DNA of 61,376 nucleotides from Candidatus Scatocola faecipullorum. Lineage in GTDB: Bacteria; Pseudomonadota; Alphaproteobacteria; RF32; CAG-239. The translations under genes and the position numbers were made by a program. The stretch spans positions 1 to 61,376 of the forward strand of contig DVNC01000036.1 of NCBI GenBank assembly GCA_018714685.1. The letters are read 5' to 3'. Below the pieces are notes generated by a model, which was not told the DNA's origin, did no database searches, and worked only from the letters and a program-made list of their open reading frames with translations. Position 1 is the stretch's first letter, and every line of letters starts with the position of its first letter. Of the stretch, positions 237 through 59,608 are shown piece after piece.

Positions 237-1199
237 CTATATTTCCGGAAAAATATTTTTGCCGCGGCTCATACGGGTCATCTGGGTTTCGATAGAAGTT
301 GCCAGATTCAGTTTGCCGCCTTTAATAATGCCGCGAACCTGATCGCCCCGGGTTGAATCCGGATTGGTAAACAAATAGCTGACCAGCGGCGTTTTGTTTT
401 TTACGCCGTGCAGGGTTTGGTGAAGCACGCCCAGCATACCGCGGGAAAACAGGTCATAAGCCAGTTCTTCGCTCATCGCTGTGGAGGAGGCGTATTTAAC
501 CACCGAGTTAATCGCATCGGTAATGTTGTTGGCGTGAATGGTTGACAAAACCAGGTGTCCCGAAGTGGCGGCGCGCAAAACTTCACTTGCCGTATCCGGG
601 GTACGGATTTCGCCGACCATAATAAAGCGCGGTTTGGAGCGCAAAGCCGATTTTAAGCCCTCGCCCCAGTTGCCGTTCGGCGGCAGCGTTTGCTTGCACA
701 GGCCCAGACCTCCCGCAACCGAATGATAAACGCCGTCCAGCGGCATTTCGGTCGGGTCTTCGATTGTGTAGGCAAAGCCGCCTTCCATCGTCAGATATTC
801 TTTCATCAGGCTGGAAATAGTGGTTGTTTTACCGGCACCGGTCGGACCGGCGCAGAGAATCAGCCCCGAAGCATTGCTGAGGGAAAGCAGGTATTGTGAA
901 AGTTCAACCGGATATCCCAGACTGTTGAACGGCGGTACTTGTTTTGGCATTTTACGGGCGCAGTATTGAATGCCGTAAATGGAAACCGTTCGTTCCACGC
1001 GATAAAAAATCTCGTCAAACATAACCGAATAACTGGGGTTGTTGCCGTCCCATGACTGTTCTATCAAGTCAAAAAAATCGTCAAAATCTTCGGCTTCCAA
1101 AACCTCCAGTCCGTTAGGCGTAACGTTGTCGGGGATGTAGGCAATTTTGTCCGGCGTAATGTAGATATCCGAGAACAAAACTTCATTTAGTTTAACCAT
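237..1199 (-). CDS. pilT: PilT/PilU-like pilus retraction-type ATPase
   Basis: 320 aa. Walker A GPTGAGKTT, Asp box TIEDPTE, SALRSKP...VGEIR (Walker B), His box GHLVLSTIHA. Lacks the long N-terminal extension and Zn-binding Cys motif of PilB/PilQ. RBS AGAGGA. The symbol is used in the retraction-ATPase sense, not R64 pilT. Confidence 0.75.
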   Translation of the reverse strand: MVKLNEVLFSDIYITPDKIAYIPDNVTPNGLEVLEAEDFDDFFDLIEQSWDGNNPSYSVMFDEIFYRVERTVSIYGIQYCARKMPKQVPPFNSLGYPVELSQYLLSLSNASGLILCAGPTGAGKTTTISSLMKEYLTMEGGFAYTIEDPTEMPLDGVYHSVAGGLGLCKQTLPPNGNWGEGLKSALRSKPRFIMVGEIRTPDTASEVLRAATSGHLVLSTIHANNITDAINSVVKYASSTAMSEELAYDLFSRGMLGVLHQTLHGVKNKTPLVSYLFTNPDSTRGDQVRGIIKGGKLNLATSIETQMTRMSRGKNIFPEI

Positions 1200-1427
1200 G
1201 TTTTCCTCTTTAGTTTTTTATAATTTAAGGCAAAGGAGCATTTTCTGCGGCGTTTTGTTGAATCTCTGCGGAAATTTATCCTTTGTCAGACTCTGTCACA
1301 AATAATTATCGCCCTCAACCAAACATGGGGTCAGTTTAACATTAAAAAGAATAATATTTATTTAATCTTTTATGACATTTTTAAGCTCAAACCGCAAATT
1401 AAACGCTCTTTTTTTGCCGTGGGATAT

Positions 1428-1455
1428 AAAAAACCCCGGCATAACCGGGGTTTTT
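1428..1455 (-). terminator. Intrinsic terminator of the major pilin gene
   Basis: AAAAAACCCCGG-cataa-CCGGGGTTTTT, just downstream of the pilin stop at 1473. Confidence 0.85.
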
Positions 1456-1472
1456 CTTAAGCACTTATACAA

Positions 1473-2102
1473 CTACATGTAATACCAAGTGATTGTTGTA
1501 TAACCATCATCTGTAGCGCAAGTCGTGGCTGCATCTGCCGGTGTAACCGGTAAGTGCATATTATCCCATGCAGCGGCACCTTTAGCCGCAGCATTACCAA
1601 AGGCTGGAGCATTCTGACCTTGCGGCGCTGCATCACTGACTTGAATACCGATAAAACCGGAAGATGCACCGGAACCCCAGTCAGACGTAATAAGCTGGAC
1701 GCAAGCTTCCTGACCCATGTTTTCATACGAAACTCTGAACGCAGAGGCTGTTTGCTGATTGTAATTAACTGTTCCGATGGTAACTGCACCTTGGAAAGCA
1801 TTAACCAGAGTATTAGCACCTACAGCAGAGGCAGCACCTTCCATTTCAGCCGGAACGACACCCATATCTAATGCATTTGATGTGGCCAAACCGGAATAAT
1901 TACGCTGGCCGGAATACAAAGTACGGATATTGGCTACCATCATGGAAACCTGATCCATTGTTTTGGTAATTTTAAATTTTGTCATTGCTTTTGAATAACC
2001 TGCGATACCGCCGACAGACAGAACGCCGATAATTGCGAGCACGCCGAGCATTTCCACCATGGAACGGCCGGTCTGTTCATTTTTTTCAAGTAAGTTAACC
2101 AT
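1473..2102 (-). CDS. pilS: Type IV major prepilin with a PilS-like globular domain
   Basis: Leader MVNLLEKNEQTG, then RSMVEMLGVLAIIGVLSVGGIAGY (Glu at +5, hydrophobic helix). C-domain NAFQGAVTIG...FRVSYENMGQEACVQLIT resembles type IVb PilS and has two Cys. It has its own RBS (AAGGAG), promoter and terminator. Confidence 0.85.
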   Translation of the reverse strand: MVNLLEKNEQTGRSMVEMLGVLAIIGVLSVGGIAGYSKAMTKFKITKTMDQVSMMVANIRTLYSGQRNYSGLATSNALDMGVVPAEMEGAASAVGANTLVNAFQGAVTIGTVNYNQQTASAFRVSYENMGQEACVQLITSDWGSGASSGFIGIQVSDAAPQGQNAPAFGNAAAKGAAAWDNMHLPVTPADAATTCATDDGYTTITWYYM

Positions 2103-2126
2103 TTTCTTTCTCCTTAGTTCAACTGC

Positions 2127-2164
2127 ATTCTATCATAATTATAACAGGTTAAAATTTTGTTACA
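2127..2164 (-). promoter_or_regulatory. Putative pilin promoter: extended -10 (TGATAGAAT) and CtrA-like box GTAA-N7-TTAAC
   Basis: The minus strand reads TGTAACAAAATTTTAACCTGTTATAATTATGATAGAAT. This is one mismatch from the CtrA consensus TTAA-N7-TTAAC. Confidence 0.45.
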
Positions 2165-2226
2165 ATTCTGGCTTTAGCTATATCATTTGCTCTTTATTTA
2201 TAACTTTAGTCATAAAAAATAAAACT

Positions 2227-2826
2227 TTATTCAAACCGCCAGGAAACAATATTGTTTTTGCCGCAATATTTGGCTGCGTCTTGTTTGGTAATCGGCAGCG
2301 GATTACTTCCGCCCCAGTTAAATTCATAGCGCTGTTCGCCGTTGCTGATAATCATCTGCAACAGGCTCAGGCTCTCCCTTTCGTTCAGCCGAAAAGCGGC
2401 CATAACCGTACATTCGCTTTTGTTGAGTTCGGGAAACGTAACCGTAAAATGACGCGTTCCCGGCATGATAATGCTGCCTTGTTCATCTTCACCGATAATA
2501 ACCGGTTTGCCGAAAGCGTTTTGCAGTTTGCCGTCAATCAGCATGCCGCCAGCTTCCAAATTGTTTTTGATGACCGTTTCGGTGTTGAGCCCCCAATATC
2601 CCGGTTTGGTCTGATAAAACAGCCGGATGTTGTTGGCTGTTTGTGCCAGTTGGGTTGCCGCGATTTCAATTTTGGGATTCGGCCGGATAATCCAGGCCAA
2701 AACAATAATAATCGCCGCCGTCATAACTGTAATGGCAATAATAATTTTCTGATCCAGCTTGACCGCACGACGGTAAGCATAAAAACGCTGTTTCAGAAAA
2801 AGCAGATAATCTTTTATTTTTTTCAT
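2227..2826 (-). CDS. PilS-fold pilin-like protein with an uncleaved membrane anchor (minor pilin/accessory)
   Basis: Probable start MKKIKDY at 2826 (199 aa; the longer ORF overlaps pilR). One TM, then ANNIRLFYQTKPGYWGL...QNAFGKPVIIG...FTVTFPELNKSEC, paralogous to the pilin. No G|xxxxE prepilin motif. Confidence 0.7.
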   Translation of the reverse strand: MKKIKDYLLFLKQRFYAYRRAVKLDQKIIIAITVMTAAIIIVLAWIIRPNPKIEIAATQLAQTANNIRLFYQTKPGYWGLNTETVIKNNLEAGGMLIDGKLQNAFGKPVIIGEDEQGSIIMPGTRHFTVTFPELNKSECTVMAAFRLNERESLSLLQMIISNGEQRYEFNWGGSNPLPITKQDAAKYCGKNNIVSWRFE

Positions 2827-2830
2827 TGTC

Positions 2831-3952
2831 TTATCCCATTCCGCTGGTGATTTGGTCTTGCATGTCGAAAACGCCCATAACCGCCCAGGCAATAACGCCG
2901 CCGACGGACAGCAGAGCAACCATGTTCAGAACGCTGGCTTTTTGCTCAATAACATAGACCGATTCTTCCAGCCAGTCATTGGCCAGCTTGTCCATTGCCT
3001 CTTCAAAATTGTCCAGTTCGGAATAAATCTTCAGGTCGGCAATAATCTCCCTGTCCGGGAAATCCAGCCCGGTTTTTTCCAGAGCCTGGCCGAGGTTGTC
3101 ACCGTTATTGACGAAGATGAGCGTCTTATCGATTCTTTCCCGCAGATAAGGGTTTGCATCACGCCGCAGTGCCTGTAATGCGGTTGAAACCGGCGTACCG
3201 CTTTTGACCAGAGCAGACATCGCCAGCAGCCAGCTGATGCCTGAAAAGACTTTATACAACGACCATGGCGGCAAATTGTCGAAAAATGAACGGATTAAAC
3301 CCCGCCAAATGCCGATAGTCAGGTAAATAATCGCCATCACTGTCGGCAGAGCCGCAAAAGCAACCGTCCAGTAGGTTCTGATCCAGTCGGAAACGTCAAC
3401 CAGTGTTTTCGCCGATCCGCGCCAGCGCACATTCGGGGCGGCTTCCTGCATCGGCGGCACCATGTAGGCACCGATACCATACAAAATCAATACCGACATA
3501 AACATCAGGAATGCCGGATAAACGATAGCCCCCACAATCGGACGCACCATTTTGGTCGTTCCTTCCGTTACTTTAATCAGGTTTAATAACGCGCTTTCAA
3601 GGTTAGAGACGTCACCGGTGGAAAGCATCAGTCTTTCACGCGCCGGAGCCCAGCCTTTCAGGGCGTCGGCAAACGTCAAACCGTTTTGCAAAGACTTGGA
3701 CCAAGCTGCAATGGCGATTGCAATCGGCTCGCCTGGACTCTTGCCGCCGTTGCTGGCGCCGTCGTACAGCAAGTCAAGCGCATCCATCAGCGAAAAGCGG
3801 TTAGACATCAGTGAGGCTATTTTCCGATACATCTTCAGTCTTGTCTTGTTAGACATTTTTGTAACAAGTTTGGCATATTGTATTTCAACCGCGCCGACGC
3901 TTTTCATTGCGCGGGTCAATGTCTCGGAACGTTTTTTATCGTCTTGTGCCAT
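2831..3952 (-). CDS. pilR: Type IV pilus inner-membrane platform protein (PilR/GspF/PilC family)
   Basis: 373 aa with two T2SSF-like repeats (SLQNGLTFADAL...AIVYPAFL; NGDNLGQALEKTG) and 3 TM segments. It follows the ATPase, as in R64. Confidence 0.85.
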   Translation of the reverse strand: MAQDDKKRSETLTRAMKSVGAVEIQYAKLVTKMSNKTRLKMYRKIASLMSNRFSLMDALDLLYDGASNGGKSPGEPIAIAIAAWSKSLQNGLTFADALKGWAPARERLMLSTGDVSNLESALLNLIKVTEGTTKMVRPIVGAIVYPAFLMFMSVLILYGIGAYMVPPMQEAAPNVRWRGSAKTLVDVSDWIRTYWTVAFAALPTVMAIIYLTIGIWRGLIRSFFDNLPPWSLYKVFSGISWLLAMSALVKSGTPVSTALQALRRDANPYLRERIDKTLIFVNNGDNLGQALEKTGLDFPDREIIADLKIYSELDNFEEAMDKLANDWLEESVYVIEQKASVLNMVALLSVGGVIAWAVMGVFDMQDQITSGMG

Positions 3953-3961
3953 AAAATCCTC

Positions 3962-5626
3962 CTAGTAAGCCGGACGTTGGTCAAGCAGGCCGCACCAGCG
4001 CTCAACCTCGTCCAAATCAATATAGCCCTTGAGCATACGTTCGATTGCGGCGTCTTTCAACGGCCGCCCGTTCAAATCGCTGGTCCAGTAATCAATTGCT
4101 TTGCGGGTTTCGCCGGCAATCATCAGCTCCAGAAAAACCGCATCCGGCAAAATAATTTCCGGCACGCTCATACGCCCTTTAATTCCCTTGTTGTCGCAAA
4201 ATTTGCACCCCGGTCCGCGCACATAGGTATTTTCAATACCGAAATCGCCCAAGGCAATCTTCAGCCGCTTGACCGCCGGGTCGTTAAGCCTCTCTTTGAC
4301 AGAGACCCGGCAATGCGGACATAATTTGCGGAACAAACGTTGTGAAATCAACCCCTTAACCAATTCAGGATCCGCCAGCATATATGGCTGAATCCCCATG
4401 TCTCGCAGTCGTGTGATAATCGCCGGGGCGCTGTTGGCGTGCAGGGTCGTCCATACGCCGTGTCCGGATAATGCCCCCTTAAAAGTTAATTCTGCCGTAG
4501 CCAAAGCACGAGTTTCGCCCACCATCATAACGTCCGGGTCTGAACGCAGTGCCGCCGACAATGCTTTGGTAAACATTTCGGCCTTTTCTTCTTCGGTATT
4601 GGCATTGGTAACCGGCATCTGCCGGGCGCCGGGAATAGGATATTCCGGCGGGTCTTCCACCGTAATCAGGTTAATTTCGTAATTTTTTTCCTGCAACAGT
4701 TTAATCATGTTGCGTTGCAGGGTTGTTGATTTTCCCGAACCGGTCGGCCCGGCAATAACACTCAATCCGGTCGGAACCGCCCGCAGCCGGTAAAACAGGT
4801 TTTCTTCATATTCGCCGAAACCCAGAGCCTGCAAATCGCCGCTGCCGTCGGGATTTTCATCGGCATACAGCAGACGCATGACCAAATATTGCGAACCGAA
4901 CGCAATCGGGTTAAACTGCAAACGGATAGCCAGAACGTTATGCGGCAGCATCAATTTGCCTTTGGAGCCGCGCAGCGGTGTTGATCCCAGTTTCTGGGCG
5001 CCCTGAAACTCGTTTTGCGCATAGTTTGAGTCGGAAATGTCTGCCGAAGCGAAAGCGGCGCGGACAAAAGATTCGCCCCAGTCTTTGTTATACTCCATCA
5101 CCGTTTGCATCATACCGTTGATGCGAAACATAATCTGCGTGCTGTCGGCCACCACAACGTGAACGTCTGACACCTTTACCGCGGCCGCCCGGGCAATTAC
5201 GTTAACGAAGTCTTTCTGCATTTGCAGTTGGTCAAGGTCTTCATCGCCCTCAATGTCCGACATCGGCTGTGCGCGTTCGCCGTAAGCGTAAACGGCATTG
5301 ATTTCGTTTTGGCTGACATAGGTCGGTTTGCTGATGTTCAGATGTTTTTTGCGGGCCAGAACTTCGAAACTTAAAACGCGCCCGTCAAATTTATGAGATT
5401 CGACAACCAGAAAACGCCCATCGGCAAACAAAGCCAGCAAACGCCGGGTATCGTCATTGATAACCAGCGAAGAACCCGGAAGCGTCAGAAGCTTGTTCCC
5501 GCCGCTGAAAAGGTCATCAATCAGATTATATTTCTTTCCTCCGCCTGCTTCTGAGGCGCCGATAACCTGACCTGAAGTCTTTCCGGCGTCGGAAGCAGCT
5601 TCTTGAATTTCTGATTCGTCGGCCAT
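3962..5626 (-). CDS. pilQ: Type IV pilus assembly ATPase (PilQ/PilB/GspE family)
   Basis: VSDVH, Walker A GPTGSGKSTT, VEDPPEY, ALRSDPDVMMVGETR, GHGVWTTLHANSA, and QRLFRKLCPHC...GCKFC tetracysteine motif. Confidence 0.92.
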   Translation of the reverse strand: MADESEIQEAASDAGKTSGQVIGASEAGGGKKYNLIDDLFSGGNKLLTLPGSSLVINDDTRRLLALFADGRFLVVESHKFDGRVLSFEVLARKKHLNISKPTYVSQNEINAVYAYGERAQPMSDIEGDEDLDQLQMQKDFVNVIARAAAVKVSDVHVVVADSTQIMFRINGMMQTVMEYNKDWGESFVRAAFASADISDSNYAQNEFQGAQKLGSTPLRGSKGKLMLPHNVLAIRLQFNPIAFGSQYLVMRLLYADENPDGSGDLQALGFGEYEENLFYRLRAVPTGLSVIAGPTGSGKSTTLQRNMIKLLQEKNYEINLITVEDPPEYPIPGARQMPVTNANTEEEKAEMFTKALSAALRSDPDVMMVGETRALATAELTFKGALSGHGVWTTLHANSAPAIITRLRDMGIQPYMLADPELVKGLISQRLFRKLCPHCRVSVKERLNDPAVKRLKIALGDFGIENTYVRGPGCKFCDNKGIKGRMSVPEIILPDAVFLELMIAGETRKAIDYWTSDLNGRPLKDAAIERMLKGYIDLDEVERWCGLLDQRPAY

Positions 5627-5634
5627 TTTTTTAC

Positions 5635-7131
5635 TTACCTGATAAACATCCCTTCACGAAGGCTGGGCAATCCCTGACTTGAATTCAAGCTTGGCAGGGG
5701 TTCCAAATCATTGTCGCCGTTTCCGCCCCTTTGCGGCAGCGGGGTAATTCCGGCTCTGGCGGCGGAAGATCTGACCGGTTCACGGTCAAGTACGCCGCCG
5801 GCGGCAAAATATAAATAATCTTTGGTGCCGTTTTTGTCAGCCCGCAGATAAGTCTGCGAAATTTCGTCAACCGTATGACCGCTCTGCAGAACCGTTCCTT
5901 TCTGAACCATAAAGGAAGAACCGCTCTTATTGATTAATTTGGCCGCCAGTTCGTTGCCTTTTCCGCTGATTTCCATAATCGCGTATTCGTCAGACAATTT
6001 CTGATTCTTTTTCTCTTCGGCATTTTCTTCCGAGGCCGAGGCAAAAGGATTGGTCTTGTCTTTGTTCTTTGCCGTATTTTCTTCTTCTCTGGCCAGCTTT
6101 TCCGCCTCCAGTCGTGATTTCAGGATGGAAATCTGCGTTTGCAGATTGGCCAATTCGCGGCTGTAATTCTTTTTTGCCGTTTCTGCGGCGTCGGCTGCCT
6201 TGGAAGCTAACTGAGCCAAGTGGTTAAGCTTCATTTTAAAGTTCTTGACCAGTTTTTCTCTGTCTTCCTCGGTCTTAACGATTTCTCCGTACAAACGGGC
6301 ATTGTTTTCAATCCATTTCTGGTTGGTATCCAGCATTTGCTCTTTATATGCGTTGACAATATTTTCCTGTCTCAGCTTTTCATAGGCAATGTTAAGCTCT
6401 CTCAGCTTCTGCTCTTCTACCAGCAGTTTGCGTTCCTGCTCTTTTTCCCATTCGATCCGCTGCCGTTCTTTTTCCGCTTTTTTCTCATTAATTTCATCAA
6501 CGGCCTTTTGCCGGGCGGCTTTAATTGCGGCAATCTCGTTTTTAACTTTTTCCCGGCGCAGTTCCAAAGTCAGCAGGCTGGTTTGTTTTTCCAAATCAGA
6601 CATCTGGTTAAATAATTCATTGTCAACCTGCGATAGAATTCCTTCGCCGAAGTTGCTGCTTTCCGGTGTCATCGGCTGCGGTCTGGACAGCGGGGACAAT
6701 GTCGGATTAGCCGGCTGCACTTGCGGCGCGGCGGCAGACAACCCTGCTGACGGAGCCTGATTGGCTGCAGTCATAGGCTGTATCGGGGCCGTATTGTTGG
6801 GCGCATTGTTATCCGGCGGCAATAAACCGCTGTCACCGTTCAAATTCGGCAGATTTAAGTCATTTGATGCATTCTGATCCGGCCCGGTCAGAGGAATAAT
6901 CGCTTCATCGTCAGACTGCGGTGCCGGAAGTTCTGTCGGAGCATCATCATTTAACGAAGGCGGAACCAGCAAGCCGCTGTCGTCGTCGGTATCGTTCAGC
7001 GTTATTTCGCTCGGAAGGGCATTGGCTGCACCTGAATTCGGAAGTTGGGCATAAGCCGGCTGCCCGGCTGCGGCTGCAATAATCAGCGCCAGAGCTGTAA
7101 TGCCTAAACTGTTTCTGATATTATAATACAT
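5635..7131 (-). CDS. pilP: PilP-like type IVb pilus protein with a long coiled coil
   Basis: Probable start MYYNIR at 7131, signal peptide ending PAYA, Pro-rich linker and coiled coil. C-terminal MEISGKGNELAAKL...GSSFMVQKGTVLQSGHTVDEIS resembles the IVb PilP domain. Lies between pilO and pilQ. Confidence 0.65.
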   Translation of the reverse strand: MYYNIRNSLGITALALIIAAAAGQPAYAQLPNSGAANALPSEITLNDTDDDSGLLVPPSLNDDAPTELPAPQSDDEAIIPLTGPDQNASNDLNLPNLNGDSGLLPPDNNAPNNTAPIQPMTAANQAPSAGLSAAAPQVQPANPTLSPLSRPQPMTPESSNFGEGILSQVDNELFNQMSDLEKQTSLLTLELRREKVKNEIAAIKAARQKAVDEINEKKAEKERQRIEWEKEQERKLLVEEQKLRELNIAYEKLRQENIVNAYKEQMLDTNQKWIENNARLYGEIVKTEEDREKLVKNFKMKLNHLAQLASKAADAAETAKKNYSRELANLQTQISILKSRLEAEKLAREEENTAKNKDKTNPFASASEENAEEKKNQKLSDEYAIMEISGKGNELAAKLINKSGSSFMVQKGTVLQSGHTVDEISQTYLRADKNGTKDYLYFAAGGVLDREPVRSSAARAGITPLPQRGGNGDNDLEPLPSLNSSQGLPSLREGMFIR

Positions 7132-8398: not shown

Positions 8399-8414
8399 TT
8401 GTTTTTTTCCTATA

Positions 8415-52300: not shown

Positions 52301-53101
52301 CATTTGCGGATCCGGATCGTTTTCGATAACCGGTGCTTCCGGAACCGGAACGTTGCCGTCGCACAAAGCATCTGCCGAAGCGCAGGCGGGAGACAAAATC
52401 TTACCTTTTCCCGTGCCGCCGTCACGCAGTTCAATATGCAGGTGAGCGCCATATGCGCCGTGTTTGGTCGTGCCGTCCGAACAACCGGTGGTTCCGACGT
52501 AGCCGATGGTCGTTCCTTTGGCGATTTTTTCTTTGGTTCCTGCAATTTTTTTTGTTTTGTCGGCAAATTTTTGCAGATGCATATATGTTGTTGTATATTG
52601 TCCGCCGCCGGCTTTTTCATGCTGCATAATAACAGTATTGCCGCCGCCGCCGTAACAGGAGCTGATTGATAAAATAACTCCGTCGGCCGCTGCGGTAACC
52701 GGAGTCCCTTCCGGTACGGCGACATCCATCCCCTGATGTTCACGATAACATTTGCCGTCGGGATATTTTACTTTTGTGCTGTATGAACTGTTGCAACTGG
52801 TAGAACGGTGGCAGGCTTCTTCGGAAATTCGTCCGACGGAGTTGAGAGAACCTTTGGTTTCAACCGGAACAGTATTCAGACAGCCTTTTTGCATTTCTTC
52901 AATTCGGCTGTTGGGATAAAGCTTCCTTGAAGCTGCGGCACCGTCAATTTTACAGGGATGAAATTGAACGGCGCAGGTATTAGACACGTCTGCGGCCCGA
53001 GCGGAGGAGATGCCGGCCGTATTCAAGCCCAGCCATAAAACGGCGGCAAATGCCAATCCGGCTTGTCTGGTCAATTTAGATATGTTAGTCATCATCTCCA
53101 T
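49382..53101 (-). CDS. virB6: VirB6/TrbL-like protein 4, fused to an M23 peptidase and a lysozyme-like (VgrG3-type) domain
   Basis: Signal peptide, M23 motifs HQGMD, YMHL and HLHIE, then ESGG...DKGGCSYGVSQM...FSQKWQALASQDSSFGTSQREYIENHY. Followed by CIFC, a polytopic domain with LIDSVLQL...LLP....YAFKSTQKY..W, and a basic C-terminal tail. Confidence 0.75.
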   Translation of the reverse strand: MEMMTNISKLTRQAGLAFAAVLWLGLNTAGISSARAADVSNTCAVQFHPCKIDGAAASRKLYPNSRIEEMQKGCLNTVPVETKGSLNSVGRISEEACHRSTSCNSSYSTKVKYPDGKCYREHQGMDVAVPEGTPVTAAADGVILSISSCYGGGGNTVIMQHEKAGGGQYTTTYMHLQKFADKTKKIAGTKEKIAKGTTIGYVGTTGCSDGTTKHGAYGAHLHIELRDGGTGKGKILSPACASADALCDGNVPVPEAPVIENDPDPQMVTAEASLGKCGKLLPADNLSAFHQQGESGGDAGAFNKCWADDKGGCSYGVSQMVCYRDSSKWNNSTMASYLQHLQKNDPSKYKALEIGGSLQSTINAACNPPATQFSQKWQALASQDSSFGTSQREYIENHYLSYGKSVLKKAGMGSLLNRSPEMDMIILAGAVAGAGPMRNNFQAVQRAIAPETFETASDETIISAYYASYAEVMYSGYADKTPYAKRAAKDEKLALESLAIRKEMENGSSLEEASQKVTGKRACEEDEYPSASVRLGQASRPAYLNEYTGAVSTESADKGDRECNVESYRSSFKTCIFCDIFGVLFNTASSVAKKSYNALADGVIMLVCVGFALWLGITVMQFISSMEQKNPSILVKTILNKAFLVLIVVTLLRLNSADFFRLAMEPIFNTGFKLAQIATEGANGETCDGSTFDILTEEKGAGLPASMGVSILCTIKTIQDKILDVMALGSTSICVALYVESWHGLALFPHLGYLIVGLVLWIAAILLLIIYPFLLIDSVLQLTVATALLPAAIGAYAFKSTQKYVGKVWDTFLNCMFNFIFLSLIIFILTNGLMDVLSKAGVESGGAMSDVGTRSGYKVILSNLAWWGTTFLKLVFYMILGWAVLGEANSFAGSFAKSIGVKDIGSKVGGLAASTANTAAIGGLKTAGKATRKVGGMALDRGREAYNSYKVNRRAKKIENDDRTVTDADGNKTLQHRTWYGRKVTDTLQVAPDGTRTVTRAKQSLRGNKATSVNNDKFIQNKKTYDKDGNLIREETRMNTAAGKTLLNRDGTRNEVAIHAIRSGSGMSNDDVDKAIMNQMMQERMGGVPGADMNREFKDREVSRTLDDQGREVFRVKQTNADGSTSIFEMTKGDKRDMLTYTHIGKNGKAESYASDGIINKKSNYHLNKDGTVDAKSVKNNYAFAKNYNSAHTRSMDSNGKFNRSVPADEIMMSEADMQLFREQVATYGKDQPMAEFGK

Positions 53102-53113
53102 AATAACACCTGC

Positions 53114-55237
53114 TTAATTCGGCTTATTGTTGTCTTTCGGGCTGTCGCCTTCTTTCTTGCCCTCATTGTCTTTTTTGTCTGCGTCTTTATTGTCTTTGTT
53201 GGCATCTTTGCCGCCGTTTACCCGGTTTTTGACAAAGTTGACGGCCCCGCCGGCAACGGCTCCGGCAGCCCGTGTCGCCTGATGAGTGACAACGCCGCCG
53301 GCAAAAGACGCGGCCTGAGTGACCTTGTTTTTTACAAAGGCGGTCATCTGGGTTGCTTTCATGTGCATCGGAGAGGCATCACCGAATGTGCTGTCGTTAA
53401 AGAATTTTCCGACATAACCGGTAACCGTGGCGCCGATCATTTTAATGCTGTAAACATAAGCAAACATAATCAGGATAAAGTTTGCGCCTGAAATGGAAAA
53501 GGTGTTGGAAACCCATTCCGCATCGCCGGCCTTGATTTTGGCATAGAAAGTCGTCAAATCGCCTAATGACACGCTTATCAGCGATAATGCATAAGAAGTG
53601 GTCAAAGCCAGGAAAGTAAACAAAGCTGCCGAACGGAAAATAATGCTCATGCACGATGTAAACTTGCCTGATGTCGGCCCGAACGGCCAGAGACCGATAA
53701 CAATCGGCAGTGCCATAATGCAGAATCCGATTTTGAAACAAACGTCAAGCAGATAGTAACCGATACCTAAAGTCAGCATAAAACCGCAGAACCAGATAGC
53801 GGCACCGCACAGCCAAATCCAGAGGTCAGGAATACGGATAGTGACGTTAACACCGAATAATCCGCCAGTATATTCCAACATGCCTGCATTAAAAGAGTGG
53901 CAGGTGAGGGCATGTCCGATAACCAGATTGGTGGAAACCGTCTTGTCGATTCCCTCGGTTAAAGCCATAATTTTGTTAATAACTACCGGAGAAATAATTT
54001 CTGTACCGTTATAGGTAAAGTTTGAGGTCAAAGCAACTTTGATTATTCCCTGATTTGCCGCCTGTAACAATCCCAGCCCGTAGTCGGCACCGGCCAGCAG
54101 CAAAGGATTGACGAACAGGTCAACAATGGCGCCGATCCCCACGTTAATTACGATATAGGCGGCGGCAACCTTGAACATGAAGATCAGCAGTGTGTTGAGA
54201 ATGCTCATCGGTTCTTGGTTGGTAAAAGCCGAGACAAGCTTCAGGGCAAATGCGGCCAGCCACAACATTGATCCGATAACCAACACCTTGCTTCCGGCTT
54301 CTCTGGTTAAATCATAAACTTTACCGCAGGCATTCATAAACGTCGTAATCAGCGTCATGATAATTTTGCAGGAATAACAGGTGGACTGATACATCTTCTG
54401 CATGTCGGGAATACTGCAAGCCGAATTGTCCCCGCGTTTTACCGTTATGCCGTCCTCTTCGGTTGTGTTTTTCCCTGTTTCATCAGTCTTAACCGTATAA
54501 GAAGAAAATCCGGCTGTTGTTGTAACAACGGTACTGGTATCCGTACCCTTTTCTACAGGTTTCTGTTTTTCTCCAAATAAAGGTTTTTTCACATCTTCAG
54601 ACTTTTTACATGTATAAGATAATGTTGATGAAGAATATGAACCTCCCGTCCCTTGAACTGACACACTGTAGCTGGAGTAGCATTCCATACCTTCCGGACA
54701 TCCTCGCGGATATTCGCTGCCGCAAGGTTGATATTCTCCGGCTGCAACGGCACGCTTATGCTCAGCTAATTCTTCGGCACGTGCAAACTCTAATTCCGTG
54801 TTTAATTTTTCATATTCCGCTTTTAAGCTGTCGTATTCATTTTTAAAACTGGGGTTTTGAGCAATAATTTTATCAAATCTTTGGTTATATTCGTCAACAG
54901 TTTCCTGTTTCCATCCCCAGTCAAAAGATTGAGTTGGAAATACATTTGTATCTACTTTTTCACCATTATCTTCTCTTTGTTCTAAGTGTTTTGCTAATTT
55001 TTCGCAAAAATTTTTTAATTTTGTTGTGGCTGCATTAACTTCATTAACCTTTTGCTGCGTTTTTTGAGTGTCCAAAGGCTCAAAAGCTTTTTCTCCTTTG
55101 GAACGGCCTTGATAAGCAGAGCCGCATGTTTCTTCAGTAAAATTTATCGTCCAAGCATTAACCGGGCGGATAACGCTAAGGGAAAGAAATCCTGCCAGAA
55201 AGAAGTTAAAAATATGTTTGAGGAGTTTATCAGTCAT
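53114..55237 (-). CDS. virB6: VirB6/TrbL-like protein 3 with an AT-rich N-terminal cargo domain
   Basis: Signal peptide, ~250-aa soluble domain, CYSC, multiple TMs, YYLLD..F...ALPI.IGLWPFGPT. Confidence 0.7.
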   Translation of the reverse strand: MTDKLLKHIFNFFLAGFLSLSVIRPVNAWTINFTEETCGSAYQGRSKGEKAFEPLDTQKTQQKVNEVNAATTKLKNFCEKLAKHLEQREDNGEKVDTNVFPTQSFDWGWKQETVDEYNQRFDKIIAQNPSFKNEYDSLKAEYEKLNTELEFARAEELAEHKRAVAAGEYQPCGSEYPRGCPEGMECYSSYSVSVQGTGGSYSSSTLSYTCKKSEDVKKPLFGEKQKPVEKGTDTSTVVTTTAGFSSYTVKTDETGKNTTEEDGITVKRGDNSACSIPDMQKMYQSTCYSCKIIMTLITTFMNACGKVYDLTREAGSKVLVIGSMLWLAAFALKLVSAFTNQEPMSILNTLLIFMFKVAAAYIVINVGIGAIVDLFVNPLLLAGADYGLGLLQAANQGIIKVALTSNFTYNGTEIISPVVINKIMALTEGIDKTVSTNLVIGHALTCHSFNAGMLEYTGGLFGVNVTIRIPDLWIWLCGAAIWFCGFMLTLGIGYYLLDVCFKIGFCIMALPIVIGLWPFGPTSGKFTSCMSIIFRSAALFTFLALTTSYALSLISVSLGDLTTFYAKIKAGDAEWVSNTFSISGANFILIMFAYVYSIKMIGATVTGYVGKFFNDSTFGDASPMHMKATQMTAFVKNKVTQAASFAGGVVTHQATRAAGAVAGGAVNFVKNRVNGGKDANKDNKDADKKDNEGKKEGDSPKDNNKPN

Positions 55238-55239
55238 TT

Positions 55240-56565
55240 TTACCTCCCCCGCAAACTGTTCATTTTGTTTTTGAACGAAGCGACTTTGGCTTTTCCGTTC
55301 TGAACTTTTTCAATAATTTTGCGTCCGGCGGCGACCTTGCTGACGGCGGCAACTGCACCGGCGGTAAAGATACTGCCCAGAACTTTGGCTGCACCGATAA
55401 TAACTGCTTTGGCTTTGGCGTTAAAGCTGCCTTTTGAGCTGCCGCCGACCAGAGAATCGGTTACCTGCTGCGCCAGCTGAACGGAAGAAGCAATCAGAAA
55501 ACCGATCATCAGCAGGCACATAAACGGAATGCTGAATTCTTTGAAATCTTTATCCGTGCCGTTTTCAAAAATGTCGGCATTGTCGATGATAATTTGCTCC
55601 AAAGCCAGCATGGCAATTGCAATCATAATTGCCATAAACATCATAAATGCGGCAGAATTCAAAATGGTGACAAAGCCTTGCGACAGCCATTTTTTAGTTG
55701 GTCCGAAAGGATATCCCATAATCAAAATCGGCAGCATAACCACCATAATCGTAAATCTGAAAATAGTGTCAACCAGATAAAAGACAAATCCGAGTTTGAC
55801 GAAAGTAAAGCAGGCGATAATCATCAGACCGATAATCGTGGCCATAAAGCCCGGAGCTTTCAAGACCTTATAAGCCATTGCCAGTCCCAGATTCATCCGG
55901 TCATTCATGGCACAGACCATGCATTTCATCATCTCTTTCGGCGATTCGGGGAAACCGCTCAAATCGGCATTGGCAACAGCGTCGGACAATTTGCAGATAA
56001 TAGATTTGCCTGCGGTAAAACTAAATCCGAAAACTTTTATGGAATTGGCCTTGCTGTCGCTGAGCGAGGCATGAGCCAGCAATTCGCTTGAAAATTCCAG
56101 AAACGCATTATAAACCGGAAAAATAATGTCATTCATGAAGAACAGCAGCTGCTGTGGGGATGATGCCACATAACCGCAGGCAAAACAAAGGAAGAATTTT
56201 CGGGCAATTTCGGTCCAGGTCTCTCCGATGTTTTCTTCGGTAAACGAACTGACATGTTTCAGCAGGCGGATAGAAAGCCAAACCGCAAAGGCAACCATCA
56301 TGAAAGTCAGGGCGCCGGAAGTAATCTTGTTATAGGTTCCCATTGCCACTTTGCCCATGTTGTCATAAAGCAGTTCAATGATAGAGTCCTGCCAGCATGT
56401 TGCCTGATCTTGCGCGATGCTCTGTTCATCAACGTCCCCTTTTACGGCTGCCCGCGATGTATCCGGGTTTTTATCGTCATTGGCACAGGCGGTAAGCATG
56501 AACATAGAGACTGCAACCACCAGCAGCAGTTTCAAAACTCGTCCTATGTCAATACTTTTCCACAT
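55240..56565 (-). CDS. virB6: VirB6/TrbL-like protein 2 (lipoprotein signal, minimal form)
   Basis: Lipobox MLTAC, CWQD, multiple TMs, FYLVDTIFRF...LPILIMGYPFGPTKKWL. Confidence 0.72.
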   Translation of the reverse strand: MWKSIDIGRVLKLLLVVAVSMFMLTACANDDKNPDTSRAAVKGDVDEQSIAQDQATCWQDSIIELLYDNMGKVAMGTYNKITSGALTFMMVAFAVWLSIRLLKHVSSFTEENIGETWTEIARKFFLCFACGYVASSPQQLLFFMNDIIFPVYNAFLEFSSELLAHASLSDSKANSIKVFGFSFTAGKSIICKLSDAVANADLSGFPESPKEMMKCMVCAMNDRMNLGLAMAYKVLKAPGFMATIIGLMIIACFTFVKLGFVFYLVDTIFRFTIMVVMLPILIMGYPFGPTKKWLSQGFVTILNSAAFMMFMAIMIAIAMLALEQIIIDNADIFENGTDKDFKEFSIPFMCLLMIGFLIASSVQLAQQVTDSLVGGSSKGSFNAKAKAVIIGAAKVLGSIFTAGAVAAVSKVAAGRKIIEKVQNGKAKVASFKNKMNSLRGR

Positions 56566-56589
56566 TGTCGTTACTCTGTTATAAAATAA

Positions 56590-59427
56590 TTATTTTTTCG
56601 GGTTGCGTTTTTTCATTTCGTCTTGAACATATTGGTTCTTGTAACGCTCATTCTCCTGTTTTATGGCATCCAGCTCGCTTTGAGCCTTTTGAGTGTCGGC
56701 TTTAGCCTTGTTATAGGCGGCTTCGGCTTTGACGGCCTCTTCAAACTGAGCGTTTGCCAGGTTTTCAAAGTTCTTTTTCTGAGCCGGGTCAGAGGCGGAC
56801 TGAGCCTTTTTCAGGTAGTCATCGGCTCTGCGGTTATGATAATTCATTTTACCCTGAGCTTCGTTTTCCGCTTTTTTGTTGCGGGCAACTTCTGCCGTCT
56901 GGTTTTGAATCATCTGCCGGCCGGCTCTGCCGTTGGCGGTGTTGTTGTAATCACTTTCCAGCTGCTGTCTCATTTGCTCGGGTGTCTGTTGCGGCGTCTG
57001 AGTCTGCTGCGCATCCGCCTGATTTCCGTGCGGTGTTCCGCCTTGAGCGGCACCGCCTTGCGGGGTTGACGGATTCGTCGGTGTTTGCGGCGAAGGTGTT
57101 GCCGGTTGCTGCGACCGCGGTCCGGCCTGCTGCATCTTCTTGATTTGATTCTCACCGCCATCACCCAAGGCACTATGAGAGAGAGGATTACTTTTTATTT
57201 CATTTTGTGCTGTTTGATTCTGAGCATTGGAAAGAGTTGGATTCGATTTATTTTGTAAAGCACCTCCATCACCTAAAGCAGAATGAGCTAAAGGATTCGT
57301 TTTTGCTCGAAGTGCAGCTTTATTTCCGGCAGCGCCGCTGCGGCGTCCTAAGCCGACAGCACCCCAAACTTTATCTTTCGCCCAATCTCTGCCTTTGTTG
57401 ACAACATTGGTAAGCCCGGTTTTGTCACTGACGGCTTTAGCCGCGCCGAGACCTGTCTTAAGGGTTCCCTGAACGCCTTTTGTCGCAGCACCATAAGCCA
57501 GACCGCCGATGTTGGCACCGATTTTCGGTCCGCCGCCGCCGGCCATGGTTCCGGCCAAATCAGAAGCTTGTCCGGTCAGTTTAAAGGCAAACAGACAGCA
57601 GGCAACCAAGACCAGGAAGCCGGCAAAGCCGATATCCAGTAATTCTTTGAGTTCTTGAACGTTATTACCGTTCAAGGCTTTCATAATGGCATCAAATCCG
57701 CCTTTGGAACCGGTTAATCCCTGTCCCAGCAATTCAACGTTGATACTGACGACCAATCCCATGAAAACATAAACGAAGAATGTGTTCATAAAGATACCCC
57801 AGCCTTTGCTCGTATAGTTGCGGGTTGCCTTAAACGGCCAGCAGGCGATCAGGAACGGCATCAAAGCGCCGATAATGCCCAGCTGAATTGTCGCATCAAT
57901 CAGATAGAAAGCAAAAGCCAAAGAGATAATCCAGCCCATGACCCAAATGGCAAATCCTTGGAACATCATGCCGAAATCCCACAAAACGTTGCGGACCGGT
58001 CCGATACTCTCTTTACCGGCATTGCGGGCAACGCACATTAAAGACGAACCGACGCTCTGCGGAACGGCCACTTCGGCTTGTACGGCTTTGATAAAGCAAT
58101 CCAGATTGGTGTAAAGGTATGCCGGCATAACCCCGTTTGACACGCCCTGAAGCGTTTTTGAAACGTCACAGGCCGCCAGATAGCTGTCGTTTTTAGCAAA
58201 CAGCAGACTTGAACCGAATTCAAAGCCGGCTTTAAGTACGGGGCCCACAATGTAGCCGTAAACAATATTGGCGTTTTTTAACATATAATAAGCTACCAGA
58301 ACCTTAAACATATTGACCAGCAGCTCGGTTACGAATTTGGGTGCATCCTGCTTGGTAAACGAACTGACGTTTTTCAAAACCATAAAAGCAATCACAATGG
58401 CAAAACCAATCAGCATCACATTGGCTAACGGCCCGGCCAGTTTGTCATAAGCTTTGGTGGACATGCTTTGTGCCGCATTGAAAATCGTTTTAAATAACGG
58501 GCAGTAAATACAGCTTCTGGATTCTGCCAGCTTGGCCGGCAACGGCACACAACCGCGGGTAACGCCGGTAATGGACTGGAATTTGTCGCCCTCCATTATG
58601 AAATAATATTCAGCAAGGATAATGGGGTTGCCATCTTTGTCTTTACCCATGACAGTATATTTATAAAGAGATTGCCCGGCCTTAATGGTTGTCTGCATGC
58701 TGTTAAGTTCTTCGACTTTCTGATCAAGTTGCTGTGCTGTAGAAAGTGCAGATTTGCCAAGTTCATGAAGTTTTTGAGCTACGGCATTGTATTCTTGGAC
58801 GACACTGAGGGCCTTTTGCAGGGCTTGTTTCTGTTTCTCATCTTTGGCTTCCACATTAGTAATACTGGAAGCATCAATAGTTTTCGTATTGGAAATCAGT
58901 TGCTGTGTGGACCATGTATAGCTGCCGTTAATCAAGCGTCTCAGCGAATCCGGATCTTCGGCATAGTTTTTTGCCGCCATGGATCCTACTGCCAGAACTA
59001 TACCGCCGATAACCAATCCCACACCCCCGGTGCCGATTGCCAGACCGACAGCACCGATAATGGCAAGGGCACCGCCGATAATTGCCGTCTTTTCAAAACC
59101 ATCCAGCTCTTTTTGCACTTCTCCAACTTTTTTTTGCAATTCTTCAATCTGTTTCTGATAGCCTTCAATCCCTTCCATATTTTTTTTGTATTTATCTTGG
59201 AGACCTTTAATCTCAGAAAGCAGGTTACCGCGGATTTTGGCTAATTCTTCATTTTTTAATTTTTCTGCATGGGTGCCGTTGTCGTCGGGTGTCATCAGGC
59301 GATTGATTGTTTCATTAACCTCTTTGCTGACAGCTTCGTTTTCAGCAAAAGCATTGCCCGGAGCAGACAGCATCCAGGTTCCGAGCACTAACAGGGAGGT
59401 ATATTTTATAAACTTATTTATCGTCAT
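56590..59427 (-). CDS. virB6: VirB6/TrbL-like protein 1 with an N-terminal coiled coil/Gly-rich hydrophobic hairpin and a long C-terminal tail
   Basis: Probable start MTINK at 59427 (GGAGG RBS), signal peptide AFA, CIYC, FYLIDATIQL...LMPFLIACWPFKATRNYTSKGW, and a TrbL-like Gly/Ala tail. NPL(A/S)HSALGDGG is duplicated at a 108-bp spacing. Confidence 0.75.
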   Translation of the reverse strand: MTINKFIKYTSLLVLGTWMLSAPGNAFAENEAVSKEVNETINRLMTPDDNGTHAEKLKNEELAKIRGNLLSEIKGLQDKYKKNMEGIEGYQKQIEELQKKVGEVQKELDGFEKTAIIGGALAIIGAVGLAIGTGGVGLVIGGIVLAVGSMAAKNYAEDPDSLRRLINGSYTWSTQQLISNTKTIDASSITNVEAKDEKQKQALQKALSVVQEYNAVAQKLHELGKSALSTAQQLDQKVEELNSMQTTIKAGQSLYKYTVMGKDKDGNPIILAEYYFIMEGDKFQSITGVTRGCVPLPAKLAESRSCIYCPLFKTIFNAAQSMSTKAYDKLAGPLANVMLIGFAIVIAFMVLKNVSSFTKQDAPKFVTELLVNMFKVLVAYYMLKNANIVYGYIVGPVLKAGFEFGSSLLFAKNDSYLAACDVSKTLQGVSNGVMPAYLYTNLDCFIKAVQAEVAVPQSVGSSLMCVARNAGKESIGPVRNVLWDFGMMFQGFAIWVMGWIISLAFAFYLIDATIQLGIIGALMPFLIACWPFKATRNYTSKGWGIFMNTFFVYVFMGLVVSINVELLGQGLTGSKGGFDAIMKALNGNNVQELKELLDIGFAGFLVLVACCLFAFKLTGQASDLAGTMAGGGGPKIGANIGGLAYGAATKGVQGTLKTGLGAAKAVSDKTGLTNVVNKGRDWAKDKVWGAVGLGRRSGAAGNKAALRAKTNPLAHSALGDGGALQNKSNPTLSNAQNQTAQNEIKSNPLSHSALGDGGENQIKKMQQAGPRSQQPATPSPQTPTNPSTPQGGAAQGGTPHGNQADAQQTQTPQQTPEQMRQQLESDYNNTANGRAGRQMIQNQTAEVARNKKAENEAQGKMNYHNRRADDYLKKAQSASDPAQKKNFENLANAQFEEAVKAEAAYNKAKADTQKAQSELDAIKQENERYKNQYVQDEMKKRNPKK

Positions 59428-59608
59428 CGTCGTCTCCTCCGGCAAAAGGATTGCCCAGAACTTTTATTGCAATAATAAATACAACCGCCACCAGAGCTAA
59501 TGCGCCCCAAAAGGCATAACGAGAGGTAAACCAGCCGAAGAAGTCAATATAATAGGCTCCGATAATGGCCATAAAGATGATTATGTTTACCAGTATTGCT
59601 CTCATCAT
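59414..59608 (-). CDS. Small two-TM membrane protein heading the virB6-like operon
   Basis: 64 aa, two hydrophobic helices, RBS GAGG, overlaps the start of the next gene. Confidence 0.7.
   Translation of the reverse strand: MMRAILVNIIIFMAIIGAYYIDFFGWFTSRYAFWGALALVAVVFIIAIKVLGNPFAGGDDDDDK

Follow-up and report, generated by a model that had tools for sequence, protein, structure and literature searches.

The DNA analysed here, a contig of Candidatus Scatocola faecipullorum (the window; the entire contig C58, 61,376 bp), carries a type IVb pilus operon that is divergent from a virB2-virB11 operon of a type IV secretion system (T4SS), which is followed by four VirB6 paralogs. We propose that this is a domesticated VirB/VirD4-type T4SS which, with the pilus, forms a core chromosomal trait of an uncultured alphaproteobacterial order of gut and rumen, and that it would serve cell contact and delivery. 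We give this reading as a whole a probability of about 0.6; its anatomical and evolutionary parts are held with high confidence. The layout, including an order of the pil genes like that of R64, had been predicted from the letters alone and was confirmed by Pfam, NCBIfam, BLASTP and hhalign (Table 1). The genome is 1.74 Mb long (62 contigs, completeness 98.8%), and the G+C content of the window (~49%) is similar to that of its other contigs.

The original prediction had named a patchy distribution among relatives as evidence against such a system. We found instead that VirB4 is encoded in 150 of the 151 sampled genomes of the order and in 20/20 genera, always in a single copy and at 67-97% identity, falling with kinship. 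The secretin of the pilus is equally present in 150/151, and the one genome lacking both, G168, is 99% complete. Within the family, VirB4 was found in 23 of the 24 other genomes (the missing one is 81% complete); a second family of the same order, sampled by one genome, has it too, and of 15 further families of the class only 2 do. A VirB4 relative is encoded in 269 of 289 candidate stretches of a species-genome collection. The best 120 matches of a protein search with VirB4 were all at least 82% identical and came from close relatives, most public records being labelled 'hypothetical protein'. Close relatives of this VirB4 are encoded in metagenome-assembled genomes ('uncultured Alphaproteobacteria', 'Proteobacteria bacterium CAG:495', 'Azospirillum sp. 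51_20', 'Candidatus Scatocola faecigallinarum') sampled from human, chicken, mouse and ruminant guts.

Since the window is itself a whole contig, its chromosomal context is seen through the relatives. There the island lies inside contigs of 135-582 kb. In the relative G011 it occupies a 300-kb contig on which an M20 peptidase gene, dnaX, a lon-like gene, dnaA and recF follow beyond the pilus operon, and 14 of the 16 flanking genes of G011 have their best match on contigs C50 or C42 of the genome studied here. The island is chromosomal, and its synteny with dnaA, dnaX and recF, together with its vertical inheritance across the order, agrees with the earlier view that it is not a mobile element.

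The predicted association between pilus and T4SS also extends across the order, where the genes of both are linked. The divergent layout recurs in G023, in G015 and, in the second family, in G025. In G001 and G011 the pilus operon is inverted and co-directional, with virB3-virB4 following some 100 bases past the last pilin gene; the virB2 genes of G011 have moved some 35 kb away. When the tops of the VirB4 and secretin match lists were compared by eye for 34 genomes, both genes lay on one contig in 30/34 and at most 13 kb apart in 29/34; in the remaining four they are split over contigs, at or near contig ends. As to the relocated virB2 genes of G011, they lie with a homolog of the protein of 916 amino acids (aa) at ~82-95 kb of contig C1, about 8 kb from dnaA-dnaN-recF.

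The original prediction had named a VirB4 nested in ordinary conjugative MPF-T clades as a finding that would refute it. In form this is what the tree shows, for VirB4 falls within a clade of plasmid modules that also encode MobA/MobL and VirD4; the placement indicates domestication from conjugation genes. We searched 72,556 plasmid records with VirB4, and the best matches were to plasmids of Microvirga sp. VF16 (pMVF16-3, 39% identity), Erythrobacter aureus (35%) and Sphingosinicella (p1, 35%), followed by plasmids of the amoeba symbiont Candidatus Paracaedimonas (30%), with all others at ~28% or less. The top three plasmids share a module of MobA/MobL, (DnaB-like), VirB2, B3, B4, unknowns, B8, B9, B10, B11 and VirD4; topoisomerase or primase genes stand alongside. 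We then placed these sequences in a maximum-likelihood tree of 18 VirB4 proteins (LG+G4, rooted on TrbE), sampled without Rickettsiales rvh, Legionella lvh, chromosomal Xanthomonadales systems and the F, I and G types. The five sequences of this order form one group (support 100/100), sister to that of Microvirga pMVF16-3 (97/96). The enclosing clade holds Erythrobacter, Sphingosinicella, Azospirillum argentinense p5 (where MobA/MobL adjoins the VirB4 module), Paracaedimonas, Magnetospira and Nitrosospira, and is split (100/99) from a branch with the VirB4 of Agrobacterium pTi, a Xanthomonas plasmid, IncX4, Campylobacter and Mesorhizobium. Judged from sequence, the system descends from the MobA/MobL-VirB-VirD4 conjugation modules of alphaproteobacterial plasmids. 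Because VirB4 nests in this clade, is inherited vertically throughout the order and stands without a relaxase, we infer that a conjugation apparatus was captured once and kept.

The window had been described as free of recognisable VirD4, relaxase, integrase and transposase genes, and a Pfam scan of its 36 open reading frames (ORFs; NCBIfam was run on ten of those) found no match to any of them. The absence of a relaxase also stood at the scale of the genome: the Pfam families Relaxase (PF03432), TrwC (PF08751), MobA_MobL (PF03389) and TraI_2 (PF07514) gave 0 matches each, the MOBV, MOBT, MOBB and MOBC types not being searched. In the family, one of 61 genomes gave a MobA_MobL match, a fragment interrupted by three stop codons on a contig of 1.2 kb. 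The genome has three genes of the integrase family, and all of them lie on contigs other than the window.

The companion claim, that there is no coupling protein, was overturned. A VirD4 with intact Walker motifs is encoded on contig C57, and a paralog on C42. The C57 protein is present in 23/24 genomes of the family at 72-95% identity, and is 32-36% identical to the VirD4 of the plasmids bearing the closest VirB4. Since the VirD4 of these same plasmids are its nearest relatives, we regard it as the cognate coupling protein, relocated from the channel genes. Its gene stands in an operon of unknown proteins adjoining mipZ and a D,D-carboxypeptidase gene, and the simplest reading of this operon is that of a substrate-loading module for the T4SS channel. 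The 204-aa and 155-aa genes after virD4 may be a toxin-immunity pair, to judge from a weak match of the 155-aa protein, two genes downstream of virD4, to the immunity-like family SUKH_5 (E 9.5e-5, below the cut-off). The C42 paralog is encoded between a pentapeptide-repeat gene and mgsA, with a SPOR-domain protein upstream. A comparable second VirD4 match was noticed in roughly half of the relatives searched.

Other components are scattered as well. Extra VirB2 copies, 83% and 76% identical to VirB2a, are found on C41 and C59 beside obg and rlmN, and a third VirB8 on C49 adjoins an oligopeptidase gene. With four VirB6, three VirB8 and these scattered copies, the Rickettsiales-like gene expansion noted earlier was upheld; VirB4 and VirB9 are present once in the genome.

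In the reading we favour, the type IVb pilus would catch another cell, and PilT-like ATPases would retract the pilus and pull that cell close. The T4SS, loaded by its unlinked cognate VirD4, would then pass macromolecules, most likely proteins, into the captured cell. The SPOR domain of VirB9, and the M23/VgrG3 head of a VirB6 where present, might anchor the machine in its own cell wall and open it locally, while fast-evolving exported proteins and VirB2 variants would face the partner, the immune system or phages.

Several observations weigh against this reading, some on the side of the cargo and some on that of the pilus. The nearest relatives of VirB4 are conjugation modules. VirD4 was not found in G020, despite a completeness of 100%. 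The conserved, membrane-tethered 433-aa protein encoded directly upstream of virD4 (N-terminal transmembrane (TM) helices, a charged linker and a C-terminal domain) matches the NERD nuclease family weakly in its C-terminal domain (E 0.022), so that DNA could still be the cargo. No effector family emerged when the C-terminal 130-aa tails of 1349 ORFs were clustered: the groups obtained look like ordinary paralog families, and so crude a method cannot argue for absence. Ankyrin repeats, a sign of eukaryote-directed effectors, were seen in one 273-aa ORF only, which is uninformative. Contigs from RNA libraries were rejected as evidence of expression, since assembled contigs do not reveal transcription, its starts or its levels, DNA carry-over is possible, they come from one study and a silent control stretch is lacking. 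One may thus ask if the machine still handles DNA (mobilisation, release or uptake), with the nuclease-like neighbour of VirD4 replacing the relaxase. Such a role would suit the place of VirB4 among conjugative plasmid modules, the matches of VirD4 to the families T4SS-DNA_transf, TraG-D_C and TrwB_AAD_bind, and the help that type IVb pili give to the liquid mating of IncI plasmids. We consider it unlikely, given that four relaxase families are absent from the genome and MobA/MobL persists as a fragment in 1/61, that a single-copy, vertically inherited core set in 150/151 genomes is unlike the distribution of conjugative elements, and that the NERD match falls well short of the Pfam threshold (15.7 vs 22.1 bits) in a protein for which a PDB sequence search found no relative. 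A PDB search with the 204-aa neighbour of VirD4 found none either. Protein rather than DNA is the cargo we favour, with moderate confidence.

True cooperation between pilus and T4SS, which is argued from gene linkage, we also rate as only moderately probable. In G021 the 20 kb upstream of virB3 contain no pilus gene, the two markers are on different contigs in 4/34 genomes, and the closest plasmid T4SS modules have no annotated pilus genes within 15-20 kb; the two systems might then be independent neighbours, the pilus being used for adhesion, twitching or colonisation and the T4SS for another purpose. This seems improbable to us, because adjacency and a shared intergenic region occur in two families of the order, G001 and G011 have one co-directional array, the same single genome lacks both, and the four split cases sit at or near contig ends. 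The original prediction had a T4SS that breaches the captured cell by its own wall-degrading and possibly membrane-active domains and has no coupling protein. One VirB6 does join an M23 domain with intact HxxxD and HxH motifs to a VgrG3-C-like domain, and the beta-flower repeats of VirB10 belong to the Tubby-like clan, some members of which bind lipids (PMC10584680). However, a conserved cognate VirD4 exists, and the wall-degrading head is not a regular part of the machine: it occurs at full length in only six of the 26 relatives, which all belong to the same genus (49-64% identity). It is moreover fused to a polytopic membrane protein behind a signal peptide, and remodelling of the cell's own wall, the role of VirB1, fits at least equally well, which leaves the breach model very unlikely. 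As for the stand-alone 61-kb contig with repeats at its ends being a misbinned plasmid or integrative conjugative element (ICE), this is scarcely credible when the island of the relatives sits in 135-582 kb contigs beside dnaA, dnaX and recF, when identity declines with kinship from 97% to 67%, and when the window has genome-like G+C and no integrase, relaxase or tRNA.

If a domesticated contact and delivery system is accepted, a wider view would be that the whole order lives by obligate cell contact, as epibionts, predators or parasites of gut microbes, host cells or protist cells, through a composite pilus-T4SS machine. We hold this as a tentative and rather doubtful extension. The retractile pilus would dock the partner, the T4SS, with its giant beta-flower VirB10 scaffold and four VirB6, would bridge the gap, and macromolecules would be exchanged after loading by the relocated VirD4 with its nuclease-like partner. 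Were this true, the way in which Saccharibacteria live by pilus and T4SS would have a diderm counterpart in a lineage common in the human gut. Since ~60 kb, some 3.5% of a small genome, are kept in 150/151 genomes, the system should be doing something central to the lifestyle of these bacteria, common gut inhabitants of people, poultry and ruminants whose genomes measure 1.3-1.9 Mb and which, judging by the records, are uncultured. Our literature search found no paper linking this bacterial group to type IV secretion. Handles for cultivation and for a search for the partner are provided by its pilins, VirB2 variants and fast-evolving exported proteins.

Comparison with known systems places these features in context. 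Domesticated T4SSs without relaxase are already known as a kind; what stands out here is the order-wide universality, the pilus partnership, the pair of giant beta-flower proteins that includes VirB10, the fourfold VirB6 and the dispersed VirD4 module, and the system shows, in a clean natural case, how a conjugation apparatus can become a fixed organelle with a conserved pilus partner. The plasmid modules of Microvirga, Erythrobacter and Sphingosinicella share with it the order virB2-B3-B4-(unknowns)-B8-B9-B10-B11 and a recognisable identity in VirB4 (35-39%), VirB11 (~40%), VirB9 (33-36%), VirB8 (up to 34%) and VirD4 (32-36%). They differ in that they have a MobA/MobL relaxase upstream, virD4 directly after virB11 and a VirB10 of normal size, whereas here the relaxase is missing, virD4 has moved, VirB6, VirB8 and VirB2 are multiplied, VirB10 has about three times their length and a type IVb pilus is attached. 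That pilus resembles the thin pilus of the IncI1 plasmid R64 (pilL-pilV), with secretin, PilO, PilP, ATPase, platform protein and PilS in the same order next to a T4SS. The R64 pilus stabilises cell pairs for the T4SS in liquid mating, and ICEs of the PFGI-1/ICEclc type also encode a type IVb pilus next to a T4SS. Those elements are mobile, have a relaxase and an origin of transfer (oriT), and their T4SSs are of types I and G; ours is by contrast a fixed chromosomal trait with a VirB-like T4SS, a PilT/PilU-like ATPase as the last pilus gene and the prepilin peptidase elsewhere.

The bacteria-killing T4SS of Xanthomonadales is reportedly a chromosomal VirB/VirD4 system without relaxase and with peptidoglycan hydrolases in its arsenal; its effectors are said to share a C-terminal signal domain and to have immunity partners, and its VirB7 to have an extra domain. 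No such effectors or VirB7 were found here by our crude test, and the VirB4 of the Xanthomonas plasmid falls in the other main branch of the tree. VirB10 homologs can be enlarged elsewhere, as in CagY of Helicobacter pylori with its very long repeat region. The repeats differ, being here beta-hairpins of beta-flower/DUF3659 type that also occur on a separate upstream protein and, in one relative, on a VirB6 tail.

Two lineage-wide systems invite a closer comparison. In the rvh system of Rickettsia, VirB4, VirB8 and VirB9 are duplicated, five VirB6 ('extraordinarily duplicated') are enlarged, VirB5 is not recognisable and the genes are dispersed in islets, with stated affinities to Legionella lvh (Gillespie et al. 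2009, PMC2653234). Both systems are chromosomal, vertically inherited, placed in islets among housekeeping genes of small-genome alphaproteobacteria and endowed with multiplied VirB8 and VirB6; VirB4 and VirB9 are single here, unlike in rvh, the nearest relatives found here are plasmid modules, and rvh is not known to have a linked type IVb pilus. The VirB4 tree holds no rvh sequence; the resemblance looks convergent. The T4SS of Patescibacteria is described as lineage-wide, chromosomal, with a VirB4 clade of its own, conjugation-derived, mostly without relaxase and sometimes near dnaA, and as essential for epibiotic growth in Saccharimonadia (Quinonero-Coronel et al. 2025, PMC12102498). It is a monoderm system of the mating-pair formation (MPF) type MPF-FATA from another phylum, whereas the one studied here is a diderm VirB-type system with an outer-membrane core, a secretin pilus and VirD4.

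Table 1. Features of the pilus-T4SS island and related genes. Positions refer to the window unless a contig is named; bits are profile scores.
Feature	Position	Strand	Basis or remark
Dispersed palindromic repeats, left contig end	1-236	.	blastn: >15 other contigs of genome matched
PilT/PilU-like ATPase, 320 aa, candidate retraction motor	237-1199	-	Pfam T2SSE 102 bits; best NCBIfam pilT_fam, E 4e-32, below cut-off
PilS-type type IVb prepilin	1473-2102	-	Pfam PilS 63 bits, Bundlin 41.8 bits
Second pilin-like protein, Bundlin-like	2227-2919	-	Pfam Bundlin 22.1 bits vs cut-off 22.3; one TM helix
PilR-like platform protein	2831-3952	-	Pfam T2SSF 91.2 bits, two stretches
PilQ-like assembly ATPase	3962-5626	-	Pfam T2SSE 218.8 bits
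PilP-domain protein, 512 aa	5635-7173	-	NCBIfam TIGR03021 pilP_fam 41.8 bits vs cut-off 34.65, residues 340-440
PilO pilin accessory protein	7121-8398	-	Pfam PAP_PilO 47.3 bits, full profile length
PilN-like secretin	8415-10058	-	Pfam Secretin 59.1 bits
TcpQ-domain protein	10021-10779	-	Pfam TcpQ 62.8 bits
First pilus operon gene, 649 aa, exported, no family	10784-12733	-	No Pfam/NCBIfam match; N-terminal hydrophobic segment
Divergent intergenic region shared by pilus and virB operons	12734-13095	.	ORF layout; 362 bases
VirB2 pilin a	13096-13434	+	Pfam TrbC 37.1 bits
VirB2 pilin b	13476-13937	+	Pfam TrbC 30.5 bits
916-aa exported protein, internal VirB2-like core (~residues 331-391)	14029-16779	+	BLASTP to VirB2a E 1e-9, to VirB2b E 1e-10; Pfam TrbC 17.3 bits, below cut-off
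VirB3, 96-aa core of ORF 16962-17357	17067-17357	+	hhalign 96.8%, E 2.6e-10, 84 columns
VirB4 ATPase	17347-19779	+	Pfam CagE_TrbE_VirB 44.6 bits; NCBIfam VirB4_CagE 364 bits, E 1.5e-108, below cut-off 643; PDB TrwK E 9e-42
Four exported proteins without family (666, 253, 463, 1568 aa), virB5-virB7 slot	19802-28600	+	Signal-peptide-like N-termini, no further TM helix
VirB8 a	28622-29380	+	Pfam VirB8 64.2 bits
VirB8 b	29695-30426	+	Pfam VirB8 82.1 bits
VirB9 with C-terminal SPOR (peptidoglycan-binding) domain	30446-32089	+	Pfam CagX 42.2 bits, SPOR 28 bits
1305-aa beta-flower repeat protein, inner-membrane-anchored	32086-36003	+	Pfam Bflower_2 288.9 bits, 13 stretches; one N-terminal TM helix
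Giant VirB10, 1755 aa (start codon as predicted)	35939-41206	+	Pfam TrbI 114.8 bits, residues 1430-1621; Bflower_2 264 bits
VirB11 ATPase	41219-42187	+	Pfam T2SSE 77.3 bits; best NCBIfam VirB11, E 6e-43, below cut-off
Accessory four-gene operon: 1029-aa acidic repeat, 243-aa, 420-aa lipoprotein-like and 237-aa TM protein	42219-48101	-	No Pfam family
1029-aa acidic repeat protein	45012-48101	-	Without signal peptide or TM helix
Double helix-turn-helix (XRE-type) regulator	48244-49215	-	Pfam HTH_3 91 bits, two stretches
VirB6-like, 1239 aa, N-terminal M23 + VgrG3-C-like head, charged C-terminal extension	49382-53101	-	Pfam Peptidase_M23 71.4, T6SS_VgrG3-like_C 47.6, TrbL 22.5 bits (below cut-off)
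VirB6-like paralog, 707 aa	53114-55237	-	BLASTP to other three E 5e-8 to 3e-25; 6-7 TM segments
VirB6-like paralog, 441 aa	55240-56565	-	Pfam TrbL 22.5 bits, below cut-off; BLASTP paralogy, TM segments
VirB6-like paralog, 951 aa	56590-59445	-	Pfam TrbL 27.1 bits vs cut-off 25.9; BLASTP paralogy
Two conserved genes, no Pfam family: 280 aa and 145-aa lipoprotein-like	59706-61003	-	Close the island in every relative examined
Promoter-like site and repeated sequence, right contig end	61183-61376	+	TTGACA-17-TATAAA behind A/T-rich stretch
VirD4, 740 aa	C57, operon ~37700-45500	-	Outside window; Walker A and B motifs, acidic tail
Second VirD4 paralog, 789 aa, 27% identical to the first	C42:126238-128607		Outside window

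The pilus operon (237-12733) encodes, in order of transcription, a 649-aa unknown, a TcpQ protein, the secretin, PilO, a PilP-domain protein, a T2SSE ATPase, a T2SSF platform protein, a Bundlin-like pilin, the PilS pilin and a PilT/PilU-like ATPase (Pfam and NCBIfam). The R64-type set of PilN, PilO, PilP, PilQ, PilR and PilS is thus present in R64 order, as seen from both databases and from the succession of ORFs. The R64 set further includes the prepilin peptidase PilU, the PilV adhesin with its shufflon and the PilT transglycosylase; here the prepilin peptidase gene is unlinked (on C59, adjoining htpG), and no PilV, shufflon or transglycosylase was recognised in the window by the Pfam scan. 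The PilQ-like ATPase is 36-39% identical to pilus ATPases encoded on plasmids of E. coli (36%) and of Alphaproteobacteria. The PilS prepilin has a leader ending in G, an E at +5 and a TM helix. Relatives retain the Bundlin-like pilin (28-60% identity), and in the 649-aa protein their conservation is confined to the C-terminal half (31-46%). The PilT-like ATPase has a paralog on C50 (56% identical). In the secretin gene, 11 listed matches from several genera (including G147, G064, G111, G105, G169, G178, G145, G172, G101 and G092) have one in-frame TAG inside the aligned stretch; it may precede the true start, in a part of the query shared with the gene before it.

The virB operon (13096-42187) starts from the intergenic region that it shares with the pilus, in which a scan for sigma-70 sites and terminators gave site counts no higher than in shuffled sequences. 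VirB3 was recognised by hhalign against six plasmid VirB3 proteins, and the 3' end of its gene overlaps the start of virB4. Concerning the latter, the VirB4 gene of G013 (C4:41061-43487) has one in-frame TGA, for which sequencing error, a pseudogene or recoding are possible. Of the parts expected in a VirB/VirD4-type T4SS (type IVA, MPF-T-like), no VirB5 or VirB7 was recognised in the window, and no VirB1-like SLT domain was found by Pfam among its ORFs, to which the search was confined. The four exported proteins in the virB5-virB7 slot have no family in Pfam or NCBIfam, nor do their orthologs. Among 10 long orthologs of the unknown proteins, the sole Pfam match was a weak one to Bflower_2 in the tail of a VirB6, the G011 ortholog of the 1239-aa protein; among 25 shorter orthologs it was TrbC in 1/25. 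The ESM Atlas offered, for the 1568-aa and the 1029-aa protein, no clusters beyond their own and unnamed ones. The 253-aa protein was aligned by hhalign with seven plasmid VirB5-slot proteins at 38%, covering the signal peptide and first helix only, and this was rejected as evidence on VirB5 either way; its AlphaFold2 (AF2) model is all-helical at low confidence (pLDDT 43, 4-row alignment). The G001 ortholog of the 463-aa protein (on contig C2 of that genome) has a VirB2-like segment near its C-terminus, and no separate virB2 precedes virB3 there.

Giant VirB10 consists of an N-terminal TM helix, ~1300 aa of beta-flower repeats and a C-terminal TrbI domain, and the 1305-aa protein encoded before it is a paralog of its N-terminal part (BLASTP E 3e-83). 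The beta-flower families were defined from predicted structures as short beta-hairpin repeats with a [DNEQ]xxG tip (PMC10584680). Both repeat proteins have one N-terminal TM helix, and if they follow the usual topology of VirB10, the repeats should lie outside the cytoplasm.

On the other strand, the block at 49382-59445 consists of four mutually paralogous VirB6-like genes (BLASTP E 5e-8 to 1e-37); against the TrbL cut-off one scores above and two below, and one was recognised by BLAST only. The 1239-aa member begins with a signal peptide and has M23 matches in the PDB; its M23/VgrG3 head may be a stand-in for VirB1. In the accessory operon after virB11, a gene order also seen in G001 and G011, the 420-aa lipoprotein-like protein is a candidate VirB7, its AF2 model (pLDDT 35, 5-row alignment) being too poor for a fold search. 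The 1029-aa protein is rich in Glu and Ala (15% each), has 12 consecutive lysines and repeats an acidic motif with a G-W-E-Y-V-x-V-P-E-E core about a dozen times. G001 and G011 have a version of half this length, and conservation with it is limited to the first ~90 residues.

The rates of change differ strongly between components. We compared the proteins with those of the closest species, G004, and of the more distant G011, and found motors among the most conserved and exported parts among the least. Identity with G004 is 99% for VirB11, 97% for VirB4, 95-96% for the regulator, 91-93% for VirB8, 86% for VirB9 and 82% for VirB10. It drops to 41, 48, 58 and 67% for the exported 253-, 666-, 463- and 1568-aa proteins, 45% for the 1029-aa acidic protein, 56% for the VirB2-like 916-aa protein and 55-69% for the VirB6 paralogs. 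With G011, VirB4 and VirB11 are 88-92% identical and the exported unknowns 29-36%, against a median of 69% (34-92%) for the flanking genes. Exposure of the exported parts to a partner or an enemy would account for their fast evolution.

The contigs of four RNA-library runs (X1-X4, chicken gut metatranscriptomes of one study) contain 84-87% of the words sampled from 12000-20000 and cover positions 1-20000 at 95-100% identity. In all four runs, contig breaks flank both the divergent intergenic region and the gap that precedes virB3. The contig with virB2a, virB2b and the 916-aa gene (12942-16800) has the highest per-contig depth in 4/4 runs, several-fold above its neighbours, and that of the PilS pilin (1473-2102) is several-fold above its neighbours in 2/4, but contig depth cannot rank genes.

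The flanks had been described as chromosomal in appearance, with palindromic repeats and an rRNA-like promoter. The dispersed repeats and the promoter-like site are there; of rRNA itself, a scan with Rfam saw none at the right end, and no Rfam family at gathering score and no tRNA was found in the window. The repeat units at 1-236 are of ~27-30 and ~60-110 bases and recur on at least 15 contigs, often at their ends (blastn), and they probably caused the assembly break. One of these matches is the end of C50, the contig that holds genes flanking the island in G011. At the right, contig C8 ends in a copy of the last 113 bases (98% identity), and this end of the window is possibly the start of a multi-copy unit, perhaps rRNA. 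In G001, G011, G004, G008, G041 and G042 the contig also ends within a few hundred bases of the last two island genes. Because contigs break at the same place in these six relatives, a multi-copy sequence, which may be an rRNA operon, appears to follow the island across the whole group.

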